Part shown: positions 44,952-50,250 of the stretch, piece after piece
How positions within the stretch are numbered: the stretch's first letter is position 1
How the letters are laid out: every line of letters starts with the position of its first letter
Source of the DNA: Candidatus Limnocylindria bacterium
Lineage (GTDB): Bacteria > Chloroflexota > Limnocylindria > P2-11E
Assembly: GCA_038207785.1 (NCBI GenBank)
Contig: JBBQZK010000001.1
Location: 76,149 to 140,148, forward strand
Direction of reading: 5' to 3'
DNA length: 64,000 nt
The notes under the pieces: model-generated
What the model was told of the DNA's origin: nothing
What the model saw: the letters and a program-made list of their open reading frames with translations, nothing else
Database searches by the model: none
Position numbers and translations under genes: made by a program

Positions 44952-45062
44952 CTAGCGGTAGTTGGTCCACCACTTCTGGAGGAAGTAGAGCGTAGCGATG
45001 AGGATCACGGTCGTGATCGCCACCATGTAGAACTCGTTGGCCTCGCCGATCTCGGTGATCAT
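44952..45062 (-). CDS. 36-aa single-TM protein, candidate small subunit of the Rieske/cyt b6 complex
   Basis: MITEIGEANEFYMVAITTVILIATLYFLQKWWTNYR; AGGAG SD about 7 nt upstream; 10 nt after the cyt c stop; nearly all GC3 codons. Confidence 0.7.
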   Translation of the reverse strand: MITEIGEANEFYMVAITTVILIATLYFLQKWWTNYR

Positions 45063-45072
45063 GCCGGCGCTC

Positions 45073-46164
45073 CTACTTCAGGCTCTTGAGGTACGCGACG
45101 AGCGCGTTGATCTGGTCGGGGTCGAGCGTACCGCCCTCGGCCTTCGCGAAGATCGGCATCAGGATCCCAGGCTTGATCTTCGGCGCGTGCGACTCCCAGT
45201 CGATGAGCCACTGGTCGCTCGAGCCGGCCGCGGCCTTCGCGGCCTTGTTCTCCGCGTTGATCGGGCCCTCCGTGCCGTAATGCCCGAGGTTCGGGGCAGC
45301 GGCGATCGGCGAATTCGTTCCCGGCGTGAAGCTGTGGCACGTCGAGCACGATCCCTGGGCGATCTGCTTCCCGAGCGAGACGGGGTCGCCGCCCGTGGCC
45401 GTCGATTGCGGGGGGTTCGGCACGTCGGAGAATCCCAGCTCGCGGCGCACCGTCACGATGTCGGCCCACTCCTTGTCCGGCGCGCGCTCGATGAACGTGA
45501 TGAGCTGGCGGATCTGCTCGTCGTTGAGCGGGCCGCCATCCTGCGGACCCCAGGCCGGCATCGAGATGCTCGGCGGCGGCTTGAGGCGACCGCGATGGAT
45601 GGTGAGGTCGAGCAGCGAGTCGACCGCGGCGAGCTTGGCCGGATCGTTCTTTATGCTGTCGTACTTGAAGTCCGGCTTGTTGAGCGGCAGGCCGACGCCG
45701 ACGTCCCCCTTGCCCTCCTTGCCGTGACAGTCGAAGCACAGGTTCGCGTACAGGTTGCGGCCCCGCGTGATCGCCGCCTCAGCCTGATGCTCCTCCGCGA
45801 CCCGGTCACGCCAGGTCCCACTGCTTGCGTCGGCGCGTACGACGAGGAGCGTGAACAGGTACGCGCCGACGAGCGCGAAGACCGCGAACAGCATGAGCCC
45901 GCCGAGCACGACCTTCTTGTCTAGATTGGCCGCGATCTCGAGCGGGTCGGGCGAGCTGGGGATGGGCGCGACGTAGTACGGGGTCGGCTGCTCGATGGTC
46001 TCGCCGGCGCCATAGTGCTGGCGGATCAGCTCGACACCTTCGACGGGACGCTCCTCGGGCTCGACCGCGTTCTGGTGCCGGATGAGGAACGCGAAGAAGC
46101 CGATGAGCCCCACGAAGAGCGCGATGCTGAGCGCAGCGAGGATGACGTTGGGGTCGAGGGTCAT
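45073..46164 (-). CDS. Membrane-anchored diheme cytochrome c
   Basis: Two N-terminal TMs; CFDCH...MPAWG and CSTCH...MPIF; ATGA overlap with the Rieske gene. Confidence 0.9.
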   Translation of the reverse strand: MTLDPNVILAALSIALFVGLIGFFAFLIRHQNAVEPEERPVEGVELIRQHYGAGETIEQPTPYYVAPIPSSPDPLEIAANLDKKVVLGGLMLFAVFALVGAYLFTLLVVRADASSGTWRDRVAEEHQAEAAITRGRNLYANLCFDCHGKEGKGDVGVGLPLNKPDFKYDSIKNDPAKLAAVDSLLDLTIHRGRLKPPPSISMPAWGPQDGGPLNDEQIRQLITFIERAPDKEWADIVTVRRELGFSDVPNPPQSTATGGDPVSLGKQIAQGSCSTCHSFTPGTNSPIAAAPNLGHYGTEGPINAENKAAKAAAGSSDQWLIDWESHAPKIKPGILMPIFAKAEGGTLDPDQINALVAYLKSLK

Positions 46165-46712: not shown

Positions 46713-47494
46713 TGCGGCGCGAAACACTGATGCGTCGAGGGCAGCGCCCACGGCGCGTACATATCCATACCGGGCCCGCGCATGGACGTACCGACGACGG
46801 TGAGCACGAGGAAGACGCACACGAAGCCGGTCCAGACGGCGATCATCCAGTCACGGGTGTTGCCATGGAAGATGACCTTCACCAGCACCACGAGCAGGAC
46901 CGACAACACGATCATCGTCGTCACCGGGATGATGTAATCGGGGAACAGCTGCTTGCCGCCCGGCAGGTTCGCGCTCGCGAACTCGATGTAGCCGCGGTCC
47001 TTCAGCAGCTTGTCGAGGACGATCAGCGAGAAGGTCAGCACGGTCGCGTAGACCGCGGCGAAATACGCCACGCGCTTCCCTGTCGGCGACGTGAACCAGA
47101 TGCCGACCCCTGAGCGCGACCGGTCGATGTACGGGATCGCCATCATGAACCCGATCCAGATGGTCGGCACGATGACTCCGGCCAGACCCTTGTCCATGTG
47201 CAGCAGGAGCTCCTGCAGATTCAGCAGGTACCACGGCGCCTTGGACGGGTTCGGCGTGCAGTCGGGCGTGCTGTGGTCCTGGAGCGGCGCGTTGAACGCG
47301 GCGGAGATGAGGAACAGCCCGATGAACCAGAGCATCGCCGCGATGAACTCGATGACCAGCAGGTGCGGCCACACCATCGCGGTGTCCTCGACCCGCTTGT
47401 CCACACGGACCACCGAGTCCTGGCGGACGAACGCGAGGAGCCGGAGGCGCTTCTCCTGGCCACTGAACGGCTGGGGACCGCGCGGAGTCGTCAC
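46709..47494 (-). CDS. Cytochrome b6 subunit IV-like (split cyt b C-terminal half), extended TM
   Basis: VWPHLL..E, APL, TPNPSKAPWY...LQELL, IPYIDR. Confidence 0.85.
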   Translation of the reverse strand: MTTPRGPQPFSGQEKRLRLLAFVRQDSVVRVDKRVEDTAMVWPHLLVIEFIAAMLWFIGLFLISAAFNAPLQDHSTPDCTPNPSKAPWYLLNLQELLLHMDKGLAGVIVPTIWIGFMMAIPYIDRSRSGVGIWFTSPTGKRVAYFAAVYATVLTFSLIVLDKLLKDRGYIEFASANLPGGKQLFPDYIIPVTTMIVLSVLLVVLVKVIFHGNTRDWMIAVWTGFVCVFLVLTVVGTSMRGPGMDMYAPWALPSTHQCFAPQ

Positions 47495-48226
47495 CTAGAG
47501 CGGTCCGGAGATCCCGCCATCTTTGCGGATCCGCCAGAAGTGGATGGCGATGAGGAAGCCCGCGGCGAGCGGCAGCGCGACGACGTGGAGCACGTAGAAC
47601 CGAAGCAGCGCGTTCGCGCCGAGCTGGTAGCCGCCGAAGAGCACGAAGCTCACCTCGTTCCCGACGAACGGCGTGGCCTGGGCGATGTTGTAGCCCACGG
47701 TCACGGCCCAGAACGCGAGCTGGTCCCACGGGAGCAGGTAGCCGGTGTAGCTCAGGAGGATGGTCAGAACGAACAGCAGCGTGCCGACGACCCAGTTGAA
47801 CTCGCGCGGCGGCTTGTACGAGCCGGTGTAGAAGACCCGGACCATGTGCAAGAACACGGTGATGACCATGCCGTGCGCGGCCCAGCGGTGCATGTTGCGG
47901 AGGATCTGGCCGAATACGACAACGGTCTCGAGATCCTTGATGTCCGTGTACGCCTCGCCGACCGACGGGTGGTAATAGAACATCAGCAGCGTCCCGGTCA
48001 GGGTGAGGACAAGGAACAGGAAGAACGACAGCCCGCCCATGCACCACGTGTACGGGATCGCCAGGGCGTGCCGGCGGACCTTGACCGGGTGCAGGTGCAG
48101 GAAGACGTTCGTGAACACCGCGAGCGACTGGTTCTTGCGCGAATCGGGGTACCCGTGGCGGAAGAGCGACTTCCAGATGGGGCCGGTCTTGACCCGGCGC
48201 CACATCTGGGCCGGCAGCTCCAGCAT
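47495..48226 (-). CDS. Cytochrome b6 (split cyt b N-terminal half)
   Basis: [25 protein letters not shown]...[31 protein letters not shown]-x14-H. Confidence 0.93.
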
Positions 48227-50250
48227 CAGTTGATCTTCACTGGTTCGCGCGTCTCCACATCAGAGCCCTTTCCGTTGGTGTGGGGATGGCCATTGCCGTT
48301 GTGGCCGTTCGCCTGCTTGTACCCGGCCGCGACGACGGGATCGTACATGGGAAGCGGCCGGATCGATCTGCCGCTCGCGACGGTGAGGTCCAGGTGGATC
48401 TCGTCGTCGATGGATTCCTTTGGCAGGATCCGCCCGACGGACGGTGTGACCGTGCCGTAGCGGTTCATCGTGATCGCGTCGGTGGGGCAGCGGATGATGC
48501 AGAGCGCGCAACGGATGCAGGCGGTCTCGTCCAAGAAGAAGGCGACGCCCTTCTCCCACTTCTTCGCTTCCGCCACGCCGGGGATCGAGCCGTCATCGAC
48601 GATGTCCGCCATGTCCACGAGGTGGATCACGTCCATGGGGCACACGTCCACGCAGCCGCCGCAGATGATGCAGAGCTCGCCCACGATCTCGATGTTGAAG
48701 TTGCACTTGAGACAGCGGTCCGATTCGGCAACGGCCTGCGCCGTCTCGTAGCCCCGGTTGACCTCGAGGAACAGGCCGCGCCGCTCGCGCTTCGCGAGCT
48801 TCGGCATCTCCTGACGCGGGATGCGGTCGTAATCGACGGACATGTTGTGGTAGATCCGCGCGAGACGCGCCTCGCCCGCGATCTGTCCGGTGTTGTCCGG
48901 AGTGCTCGACCGGCGGAGCGTGACGACCTCGTGGTACTCCGGGACGCTCACCGATGCGGCGATCGGATCGAGGTACCGCGCGATCTGCTGCGCCGCGGAC
49001 CGACCCTCGGCGACGGCCTCGATGATCGTCGTCGGACCGGTGCGGTAGTCACCGGCGATGAAGATGGACTCGATCTCGGTCTGGAAGGTCTCGGGATCGA
49101 CCTTCACGTCGCGCCAGCGCTTGACCCGGAACGGCTCGAAGTCGTTCATGAACGTGCGATCGGGGGCCTGGCCGAGGGCGAGCAGCACGGTCTCGCACGG
49201 GATCTCGAACTCGGAGCCTTCGATCGGCTCGGGCGCGCGGCGGCCGCTCGCGTCGGGGCTGCCGAGGCGGTTGCGCACGAACTTCACGCCCCGGACGTGG
49301 CCCTTCGCGTCAGCGAGGACCTCGACCGGCGAGGCGAGGTATACGAACTCCATGCCCTCGCGAGCGGTCTCGCCGAGCTCCTCTTCGTCCACGACCATCT
49401 CGTCGCGGCTCCGGCGGTAGACGATGTAGATGTCCTCGGCCCCGAGGCGCCATGAGGTGGAAGCGCAGTCCATCGCCGTGTAGCCGCCACCCAGGACCAC
49501 GACGCGCTTCCCGACCTCGACCGGACGGCCGCGGTACGCGCGCTCGAGGAACACGATGCCGGCCATGACGCCAAGGCTGTCCTCACCCGGGATCCCGATG
49601 TATGTCGGCTCGAAGCAGCCGGCCGTGACGAGGACGGCGTCGAACTGCTCGGTGAGCTGGCGCAGCTTGATGTCGCGGCCGACGTACGTGGACATCTTGA
49701 GCTCGACGTTCTCGTTCACGATGCCCGCGATGTCGCGGTCGATCACCTCGCGTGGCAGGCGGAACGGCGGGACACCCGCGAGCGTCGTGCCACCGGCCTG
49801 GTCGAGCGCGTCGAACACCGTGACCCCGAAGCCCAGCTTCGCGAGGTCGCTGGCGGCCGAGAGGCCGGAGCAGCCGGCGCCGACGATGGCGACCTTCTTC
49901 TCGGGCGGCCCGTAGACCGGCGGCGCGGGCTGGCGATACTGGTGCCCGTCGACCGTGACGTTGTCGTGGGTCCAGTCGGAGAGGAACTTCTTGACGTAGC
50001 GGATCGAGAGCGGCTTATCGACCTCCTTGCGGCGGCAGGCGCTCTCGCACGGGGCGGCGCACACGCTGCCGCAGATGCTGGCCATGGGGTTGGGGTCGAG
50101 CGCGAGCTCCCACGCCTTCTCGAACTCGCCGGCGGCCGCCAGATTGAGGTACCCGCGGCAATTGGTCTTGACCGGACAGGCTTCCTGGCACGGGATGTTG
50201 TCCTGATACCAGGCCGGCCCGACCTCCACCACCTGGTACAGCTCTCTCAC
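48226..50250 (-). CDS. NAD(P)H-dependent Fe-S flavoprotein, GltD/NfnB/DsrL-like, with C-terminal 2x[4Fe-4S] ferredoxin
   Basis: [38 protein letters not shown]...[42 protein letters not shown] overlap with cyt b6. Confidence 0.9.

Follow-up and report, generated by a model that had tools for sequence, protein, structure and literature searches.

A conserved Limnocylindria operon joins an NADP(H)-type Fe-S flavoprotein gene to the genes of a Rieske/cytochrome b6 complex

A 64,000-nt stretch of contig JBBQZK010000001.1 (here called the window; G+C content, ~69%) from a metagenome-assembled genome (MAG) of Candidatus Limnocylindria (G000; 2.48 Mb in 126 contigs, 92.7% complete) encodes a Rieske/cytochrome b6 complex whose operon is headed by a gene for a large, NADP(H)-type Fe-S flavoprotein. 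Throughout the Limnocylindria, this flavoprotein has been inherited and lost together with the b6-type complex III, and flavoproteins of the same kind have become linked to b6-type complexes independently in at least three other lineages. That the flavoprotein and cytochrome b6 exchange electrons functionally is, in our judgment, reasonably probable. The explanation we favour for the arrangement is that the flavoprotein docks on the b6 complex and passes low-potential electrons to NADP+ as a facultative side branch; based on gene content and motifs, we put it forward tentatively, as somewhat short of an even chance.

The genes of the window were taken from a list of open reading frames (ORFs), the junctions between them were read on the minus strand, and domains were assigned with Pfam and NCBIfam. 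Six closely packed genes run on the minus strand from position 50250 to 44952 in the order flavoprotein, cytochrome b6, subunit IV, Rieske protein, cytochrome c, and a 36-codon frame termed tm36. With the elements on either side, they are as follows.

50260..50287, minus strand: promoter-like site TTGACA-16-TAGCAT, ending 10 nt upstream of the flavoprotein GTG
48226..50250, minus strand: Fe-S flavoprotein, 674 aa (ORF; Pfam, NCBIfam, and PDB matches)
47495..48226, minus strand: cytochrome b6, 243 aa (PF00033; NF040969 ExtP)
46709..47494, minus strand: subunit IV, 261 aa (PF00032, weak; Qo motif APWY)
46161..46712, minus strand: Rieske [2Fe-2S] protein, 183 aa, best start ATG at 46712 (PF00355)
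45073..46164, minus strand: membrane-anchored diheme cytochrome c, 363 aa, best start ATG at 46164 (CFDCH and CSTCH)
44952..45062, minus strand: tm36, single-helix peptide of 36 aa (conserved frame; no Pfam family)
44506..44973, minus strand: hydrophobic ORF, 155 aa, overlapping the end of tm36 (synteny in relatives; no Pfam family)

The flavoprotein stop codon and the b6 start codon have one base in common (TGATG), the b6 gene abuts that of subunit IV (TAG followed directly by GTG), ATGA overlaps join subunit IV to the Rieske gene and the Rieske gene to that of cytochrome c, and a 10-nt gap containing GGAG separates cytochrome c from tm36. This reading of the junctions confirmed the six closely coupled minus-strand genes, with overlaps of 1 to 4 nt, abutting ends, or a 10-nt gap, that the original prediction had described; its domain assignments were likewise borne out by Pfam and NCBIfam, and every flavoprotein and b6 motif that it had listed is present in the sequence. 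The same gene order, from the flavoprotein to tm36, was found again in related contigs, and the operon is therefore not a product of chance. A divergent DUF402 gene lies upstream. The promoter-like site is the sole sigma-70-like match in 7.5 kb (mean of 0.6 matches in shuffled sequence); as a consensus match it marks a candidate promoter and is no evidence of function. In a number of related loci (L020, L023, L027, L036, L037, L038, L040, L045, L047, L062, and L069), a spacer of 170 to 220 nt lies between b6 and subunit IV, at the point where the window genes abut.

The flavoprotein is built from an N-terminal two-cluster domain (Fer4_20, PF14691; residues 18 to 96; E value, 1.3e-16), a flavin adenine dinucleotide (FAD)/NADPH core (Pyr_redox_2, PF07992; residues 118 to 416; E value, 1.4e-30), an RCxxC linker, and a C-terminal 2x[4Fe-4S] ferredoxin domain (Fer4_7; residues 527 to 592) that carries a 40-residue insert. 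The N-terminal domain contains P20-C21-xxx-C25-P26 and C60-x3-C64-x3-C68-x3-C72, the core contains the NADPH-type motif G254-G-G-Y-T-A259 ... Y-R279-R280, the linker reads R512-C513-xx-C516, and the C-terminal clusters are assigned to C527/530/533/537 and C578/581/584/588. Invariance of flavoprotein and b6 residues was judged over 21 Limnocylindria sequences. In all 21 flavoproteins, seven N-terminal cysteines, the RCxxC pair, both CxxCxxCxxxCP motifs, and G-G-G-Y-T-A...R-R are invariant, and a conserved acidic tail after the ferredoxin domain includes the invariant residues E612, S613, and D616. His24 of the FRHGYP stretch was considered as a special ligand and rejected; divergent relatives within the class have Gln. 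The sequence contains no signal peptide, and the protein is therefore taken to be cytoplasmic.

Among the NCBIfam models, PRK12771 scores highest, with 445 bits, which is under the cut-off of 516 bits. The closest relatives of known structure are 9n5u_A, named 'NfnA' (E value, 7e-102), and 9bov_A (4.4e-98; entries 9bov/9bp5), followed by NfnB 4ylf_B (3.1e-88), StnC-like 8oh5_C (3.3e-88), 5jca_L (7.9e-80), and 2vdc_G (2.1e-63). The resemblance to NfnB-, GltD-, and DsrL-type proteins that had been recognized in the original prediction holds, with PDB matches at E values of 7e-102 to 3e-88. The domain order, with a ferredoxin domain at the C-terminus, is like that of DsrL.

The 243-aa cytochrome b6 matches PF00033 (E value, 3.7e-43) and NF040969 ExtP (296.7 bits against a cut-off of 290) and aligns from residue 60 onward with cyanobacterial and chloroplast b6 at E values of ~1e-46. 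Its four haem-b ligands, H113/H127 and H214/H229 (helix D, H-x14-H), are invariant, and W61-C62-M-G-G (TWCMGG) aligns with the haem-cn FYCLGG of solved b6 chains. This CxGG haem-cn motif is present in 68 of 68 Limnocylindria b6 matches. Compared with the solved chains, the protein has an N-terminal extension of ~27 aa holding the invariant stretch N-V-F-L-H44. His44 (N-x-F-L-H) is kept in 21/21 Limnocylindria b6 and in 11/11 b6 of the Acidobacteriota type described below, and the motif also occurs in the b6 of a Chloroflexota genome, G273, whose operon has no adjacent flavoprotein. By analogy, His44 may correspond to the interfacial haem ligand of the Kuenenia models.

Subunit IV is encoded by a separate gene and is matched weakly by PF00032 (18.2 bits against a cut-off of 20.7) and by NF040970 ExtQ (39 bits against 150). 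At 261 aa it is longer than the forms of 162 to 170 aa found in more distant class relatives, and its Qo motif, APWY, recurs in 47 of 52 relatives' matches, the other 5 being unmatched by the pattern used. The Rieske protein has a Tat-like RRQLL N-terminus and the motifs CTHLGC ... CPCHGSIY; among 47 relatives, box II reads CPCHGS-x-Y in 40 and S-x-F in 7. The cytochrome c contains two c-type domains (CFDCH and CSTCH) and two N-terminal hydrophobic stretches, matches the class I domains PF00034 and PF13442, not cytochrome f, and has two CxxCH motifs in all 38 relatives' matches. The frame and stop codon of tm36 are kept in 36 of 38 related loci, with the C-terminus YFLQKWWT(N/T)YR, and the conservation of this sequence makes tm36 a likely small subunit of the complex. 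Directly after tm36, the 155-aa ORF recurs in 37 loci at 50 to 85% identity; its membership of the complex is uncertain.

Linkage between the flavoprotein and b6 was surveyed in 79 related genome contigs with a flavoprotein match and in a phylum sample of 401 Chloroflexota genomes, 45 of which are class relatives. (The phylum tallies include six genomes flagged as unpublished, G038, G145, G173, G227, G272, and G344; no statement is made on these alone.) Contigs with near-identical genes are labelled Candidatus Limnocylindria or Chloroflexota. In 68 of the 79 contigs, b6 comes directly after the flavoprotein, and the remaining 11 end no more than 13 nt from the flavoprotein match, so that the pair is found in 68/68 related loci that reach past the flavoprotein gene. 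Even four divergent loci, at 43 to 45% identity, retain it. Within the phylum sample, this b6 is present in 38 of the 45 class relatives, and according to the coordinates the flavoprotein lies immediately upstream on the same strand in 37 of these 38; in the exception, G124, the two genes are at two contig ends. The seven class genomes without this b6 (no match at E ≤ 1e-20; genera g12 and g14) have only weak flavoprotein matches, at the level of the paralogue (E values, 1e-84 to 1e-89), and two of them, G169 and G187, show a weak PF00033 match (1e-7 to 1e-9). By both counts, 68/68 loci and 37/38 class genomes, the original prediction, which a flavoprotein standing apart from b6 in relatives would have contradicted, was not refuted. 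Four contigs that are 79 to 94% identical to the operon (L006, L017, L019, and L032) are filed under Saccharimonadales, Acidiferrales, and Bathyarchaeia MAGs, most likely through binning errors.

Outside the class, the phylum sample holds one exceptional genome, G359 (Chloroflexota; 47% G+C), in which a 614-aa flavoprotein overlaps a 283-aa CxGG-type b6.

C6:56000-72000 (L092), genes 8016-9860 and 7184-8035, minus strand: two-gene module of G359, flavoprotein and cytochrome b6

No genes for subunit IV, a Rieske protein, or cytochrome c follow this pair, and no subunit IV was found with this query in the 98%-complete genome. By analogy, the module resembles a stage put forward by Dibrova et al., in which cytochrome b serves to anchor an oxidoreductase. 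Database proteins that seem to fuse the two partners were also considered. Among 120 longer b6 relatives listed, 4 (P0479, P0471, P0513, and P0533) have Fer4 domains fused before b6, and one of these, P0479, also carries Pyr_redox_2, a part of the flavoprotein. As true fusions, three were rejected, since they look like read-through of neighbouring Limnocylindria genes: P0479 and P0533 contain frame-shift-like stretches, and P0471 starts at a flavoprotein-internal Met. Such Fer4-b6 entries are probably read-through or assembly artefacts that confirm adjacency only. P0513 comes from a different lineage and consists of an N-terminal helix, a 2x[4Fe-4S] domain, and b6.

A search among 1.84 billion representative proteins at E ≤ 1e-3 returned 20,385 relatives of the flavoprotein. 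Many are proteins of ~600 aa with the complete architecture at 35 to 49% identity, and the cluster labels looked up include Brocadiaceae / Ca. Wunengus / Planctomycetota, Nitrospinota, Nitrospirota, Thermincola, and Dehalococcoidia. The Brocadiaceae / Ca. Wunengus representative, P0153, is 39% identical over residues 13 to 597 (E value, 1.6e-103) in a comparison of sequence. In a FastTree of 77 proteins, whose rows were chosen by length and motif and whose support values were not inspected, the unlinked Chloroflexota homologues group farther from the Brocadiaceae representative than the Limnocylindria clade does, and the G359 flavoprotein falls in another clade than that of the Limnocylindria.

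A metagenome scan with a 7-sequence alignment, seeded with a rare member of the flavoprotein family, gave 80 loci. Eleven of them (L121, L145, L146, L147, L149, L150, L157, L159, L171, L172, and L173) carry the series flavoprotein-Rieske-b6-IV. In L121 (5995-12674), the sole operon listed in full, this series is followed by a c protein that has ~8 CxxCH motifs and then by another cytochrome c; near-identical relatives of the L121 flavoprotein are labelled Candidatus Angelobacter (Acidobacteriota), with two entries labelled Limnocylindrales. In these Acidobacteriota-type loci, the CxGG cysteine is replaced throughout (0/11 keep it), the Rieske box is S-x-F in 11/11, and APWY is present in 9/9 subunit IV matches. 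Another 12 of the 80 loci have the complete flavoprotein architecture with no b6 nearby; the loci outside these two groups match to about residue 520 only, which points to other fusion types.

For the physical attachment of the flavoprotein, the electron path, and its direction, we infer the following from the gene content. A menaquinol-type (APWY-clade) Rieske/b6 complex III of aerobic Limnocylindria would carry the cytoplasmic NADP(H)-binding Fe-S flavoprotein, most likely on the cytoplasmic (n) face of the b6 dimer. Electrons would pass from haem bL to haem bH, with or without haem cn, to the two ferredoxin-domain clusters, then to the two N-terminal clusters, and finally to FAD/NADP(H). 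We favour the anammox-type direction, in which part of the low-potential electrons from Qo would reduce NADP+, with the high-potential Rieske/cytochrome c branch bearing the cost; that the net flow runs mainly towards NADP+ seems to us somewhat less likely than not. Because the complex appears to be the sole complex III in many relatives, the NADP+ branch would be facultative, competing with quinone reduction at Qi, and not an obligatory route. The flavoprotein would then probably be a side port on a working complex III. Haem cn is not the general docking partner, because the Acidobacteriota-type complexes lack the CxGG cysteine (11/11); its replacement in this other linked clade argues against the docking at haem ci that the original prediction had envisaged.

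Several lines of evidence are consistent with the facultative branch. The linkage within the class, the independent linkage in other lineages, the homology of the flavoprotein to the anammox kind, the apparent translational coupling at TGATG, the single promoter-like site upstream of the flavoprotein, and the lack of a signal peptide all speak for it, and the high-potential-type Rieske residues would, by analogy, agree with the mid+ to high potential predicted for the APWY clade. Menaquinone has a redox potential of about -74 mV. NADP+ is placed at ~-320 mV in the part of PMC12954380 drawn on here. Given a high-potential Rieske protein and a low-potential quinone, the latter assumed, the low-potential branch could reach NADP+. 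A structure prediction of a partial complex (two copies of b6, flavoprotein residues 430 to 674, and four haems) gave scores of 0.00 and 0.02 against a mark of 0.32 and speaks neither for nor against binding.

A number of findings weigh against NADP+ reduction by the complex, or restrict it. In the class survey of 61 genomes for cytochrome b count and ActD, PF00033 has a single strong match in 21 genomes, and ActD, the marker of alternative complex III, was found in 0/61; a 1:1 diversion of electrons to NADP+ is therefore not plausible as an obligatory process. For the 14 of those 21 genomes that are also in the phylum sample, the coordinates identify the single match as the flavoprotein-linked b6. 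The MAG encodes the PntB transhydrogenase, an ordinary NADH/NADPH route, and in this 92.7%-complete genome, which encodes quinol-oxidising complexes, MenA, MqnA, and MqnC were not found and MenB stayed below the cut-off. Among other Chloroflexota, b6 operons with 56 to 68% identity are common in many families; four of these families (f27, f33, f40, and f48) have no flavoprotein match at E ≤ 1e-60, and two (f8 and f18) have weak GltD-like matches only (~1e-61 to 1e-78), so the flavoprotein is not needed there for the complex to work. In 35 genomes (families f9, f16, f24, f28, f43, and f46), a homologue of the same architecture at 41 to 45% identity does not adjoin b6: 4 of these homologues are on the b6 contig at a distance of 0.15 to 3 Mb, and the other 31 lie on different contigs. 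In the three genomes examined on both sides (G273, G165, and G122), b6-IV-Rieske-cytochrome c stands without a flavoprotein and the flavoprotein lies among unrelated genes; in G026, where the flavoprotein side was checked, it also lies among unrelated genes. Finally, the G359 pair has no Rieske or subunit IV gene beside it and therefore cannot bifurcate, which, for that lineage at least, points to simple NAD(P)H:quinone chemistry.

The same attachment could run in reverse, with NADPH feeding electrons through the four clusters to haem bH/cn and on to quinone at the n-side site, analogous to the entry of electrons from ferredoxin/FNR that has been proposed for cyclic flow in chloroplast b6f. 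Such input would provide a respiratory entry point for NADPH, or the second electron at Qi. The reaction is downhill for any quinone, it is compatible with a sole complex III in 21/61 relatives and with a haem-cn motif in every one of the 68 Limnocylindria b6 matches, and non-bifurcating NAD(P)H:quinone chemistry is all that the G359 pair, for which no subunit IV was found, can do; in addition, FNR co-purifies with b6f (Zhang et al. 2001, as cited in the part of PMC5600118 drawn on here). However, the haem-cn cysteine is missing in all 11 Acidobacteriota-type linked operons, and the G359 flavoprotein belongs to a different family clade than that of the Limnocylindria (support values not inspected). 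Electron transfer from NAD(P)H to quinone through such a complex is, moreover, called energy-wasting where proton-pumping NADH dehydrogenases exist, in a section of PMC12954380, and nuo genes are present here beside a paralogue on contig C51. Taken together, we regard NADPH input as possible but unlikely. More doubtful again, and indeed decidedly unlikely, is a flavoprotein that acts as a soluble NADPH-dependent oxidoreductase of the NfnB, GltD, SudA, or DsrL type with another partner or free ferredoxin and that is merely co-transcribed with b6 for co-regulation of redox balance. The stand-alone homologues in 35 other Chloroflexota genomes, the 12 of 80 metagenome loci without b6, and the sheer size of the family (20,385 representatives) would all suit such an enzyme, as would the GltB and PyrK/NfnA-like domain (C24) of the genome, which have no small subunit beside them. 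It fits poorly with the one-base overlap onto b6, with class-wide conservation and co-loss, and with the independent linkage in Acidobacteriota-like contigs, G359, and anammox bacteria, whose Rieske/cytochrome b (R/b) subunits co-migrate according to complexome work cited in the part of PMC12954380 drawn on here; GltD and NfnB proper, too, have no C-terminal ferredoxin domain.

A last explanation would make the flavoprotein a maturation or repair factor, for covalent attachment of haem cn or for Fe-S or haem reduction, instead of a catalytic subunit. Its gene always precedes b6 in the Limnocylindria, and the haem cn insertion system is described as unidentified outside cyanobacteria and plastids in the portion of PMC5600118 available to us. 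Nevertheless, the flavoprotein is kept in 11/11 linked operons whose b6 is without the CxGG cysteine, many Chloroflexota CxGG-type b6 (56 to 68% identity) exist without this flavoprotein, and we would expect an assembly factor to be much smaller than a 674-aa enzyme with four clusters and FAD. A haem-cn maturation role was rejected on these grounds, and the explanation as a whole is very improbable. We therefore favour the facultative NADP+-reducing branch over n-side NADPH input, and NADPH input over co-expression of a soluble enzyme.

The rest of the genome adds to this picture. A second cytochrome b (C66:38-4299; 529 aa), fused to subunit-IV-like and cytochrome c domains, lies directly after COX1 and forms a second, conventional-looking complex III beside an oxidase; with a second COX1, the MAG has two haem-copper oxidases. 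According to the original prediction, pairing of the flavoprotein with GltB, NfnA, or DPD elsewhere in the genome would count against it: GltB is on contig C69, and no GltD-like gene was reported beside it there. The sole other GltD-like gene, at C51:10716-13469 (L002 889-3642, minus strand), is a 917-aa ORF beside nuo-like genes, with an N-terminal 2Fe-2S (Fer2_4) domain and a C-terminal ferredoxin domain; the PyrK/NfnA-type Fe-S domain has one match, on contig C24. A search for dsrA (TIGR02064) gave no match in the 92.7%-complete genome and dsrB was not searched for, in keeping, as far as dsrA is concerned, with the statement of the original prediction that the window contains no dsr genes.

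The window also encodes SdhA, SucC, and regulators, and its gene content fits that of an aerobic heterotroph. Upstream of the operon, at 50787-51278 on the minus strand, is a gene whose product has an N-terminal helix and a DM13 'electron transfer' domain, adjoined by a two-component system at 51304-53078. An SdhA-type flavoprotein of 612 aa is encoded within 39853-42500 (minus strand), 2 kb downstream of the operon; a 273-aa membrane ORF without a Pfam family overlaps and precedes its gene and is possibly an unusual complex II anchor.

Diversion of the low-potential electron of a Rieske/cytochrome b complex to NAD(P)+ instead of quinone has been a proposal since the Kuenenia genome work. This locus and the Acidobacteriota operons extend the flavoprotein-linked form beyond anammox: an entire class of aerobic Chloroflexota has it as a rule, often as the only cytochrome b complex found. 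It also constrains models, since the flavoprotein branch must coexist with ordinary respiratory flux. The presence of a diheme cytochrome c and the lack of multihaem and HAO-like subunits should make the complex more tractable for expression, structure determination, and assays. A bolder generalization, that the complex III, in many cases the sole one, of abundant aerobic soil and freshwater bacteria such as the Limnocylindria and Angelobacter-type Acidobacteriota doubles as a quinol-bifurcating NADP+ reductase, seems to us rather unlikely. If it were true, the quinone pool would be a direct source of NADPH, paid for by the cytochrome c/oxygen branch, and what has been proposed for anammox alone would amount to a common third route of NADPH supply in aerobes, besides transhydrogenase and dehydrogenases.

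Among known systems, NfnB, GltD, NfnABC, and DPD have the N-terminal module, Fer4_20 with an FAD/NADPH core and GGGxxA...YRR, in common with the flavoprotein. GltD and NfnB proper end without the C-terminal ferredoxin domain (PDB chain lengths, 456 to 482), and unlike NfnB, GltD, DPD, and DsrL, the flavoprotein has no NfnA, GltB, DPD, or dsrAB partner adjoining it, its neighbours being b6, subunit IV, and the Rieske protein. Chloroplast and cyanobacterial b6f resembles the complex in its b6/IV/Rieske core, haem cn, single-helix subunits, and n-side NADP(H) flavoenzyme. Unlike b6f, the operon encodes no cytochrome f, and its flavoprotein is unrelated to plant-type FNR, has its own Fe-S wire, and is operon-encoded; no photosynthesis genes are shown in the window. 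The Geobacter ExtOPQ proteins are matched in part, the ExtP cut-off being reached (296.7/290) and that of ExtQ not (39/150). Multihaem cytochromes, a porin, and a rhodanese belong to the Geobacter ext cluster, and no flavoprotein is among its products ExtH-ExtS listed in the extract of PMC5877670 drawn on here; among the window genes, none for multihaem or porin proteins is adjacent to the operon.

The Qo motif of subunit IV is that of the APWY clade, which comprises delta-Proteobacteria, Chloroflexi, Nitrospirales, Planctomycetes, and others and is called uncharacterised in the part of PMC4122944 (Kao and Hunte 2014) available to us, where its Rieske proteins are predicted to be of mid+ to high potential. 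Another point of contact is subfamily G of the cytochromes b (Dibrova et al. 2013, 2017), a taxonomically mixed group including Ktedonobacteria, Nitrospinae, and Planctomycetes. As set out in the part of PMC5600118 (Dibrova 2017) at hand, its members co-occur with large NAD(P)-binding Fe-S oxidoreductases, the genes of which are inside the bc operon in some planctomycetes and in proximity 'in many other cases' (tree figures). A short CxGG-type cytochrome b and a nearby gene for an NAD(P)/Fe-S oxidoreductase are common to subfamily G and this operon. In a term search, the text of that paper, as far as it was accessible, contained no mention of Limnocylindria, Chloroflexi, or Acidobacteria; the cases appear only in its Fig. 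2/S1. The reported 'many other cases' contradict the rarity of flavoprotein-b6 linkage that the original prediction had implied.

The closest parallel is anammox. The portion of PMC12954380 drawn on here describes two Kuenenia R/b complexes with a cytoplasmic NAD(P) oxidoreductase, reports measured Rieske potentials of +303 mV (Kuste4569) and +335 mV (Kustd1480), presents AlphaFold3 models in which four clusters lead to FAD and an unexpected haem b sits on His43 of both b6 copies, and discusses the idea of NAD(P)+ reduction being driven by quinol bifurcation. Compared through published descriptions, Kuste4569-4574/Kustd1480-1485 and the Limnocylindria operon have in common a split b6-type cytochrome b, subunit IV, a Rieske protein, and an operon-encoded cytoplasmic NAD(P) Fe-S flavoprotein with four clusters leading to FAD. 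The Ser/Tyr and Ser/Phe pairs of the Rieske proteins here are those of Kuste4569 (+303 mV) and Kustd1480 (+335 mV), respectively, and NfnABC 9bp5 (9bov/9bp5) is the closest solved structure both for the Kuenenia oxidoreductase and for this flavoprotein. The anammox-like architecture named in the original prediction agrees with this R/b layout, and the Brocadiaceae-labelled homologue is 39% identical over the full length. In contrast to the hexa-/octahaem cytochromes and HAO-like protein of Kuenenia R/b, the subunit here is a diheme cytochrome c; the flavoprotein comes first in the gene order, subunit IV is extended, and a 36-aa peptide is added. The host, too, differs, being an aerobe with two haem-copper oxidases and no anammoxosome. 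A full-text literature search found no paper pairing Limnocylindr with Rieske, and the papers that it listed as naming the Kuenenia loci are all on anammox. The flavoprotein-b6 architecture is thus not of a new kind, having been described for anammox and noted more widely; what is new here is its occurrence in a new class and in an aerobic host, with a simpler diheme composition and an extra 36-aa peptide.

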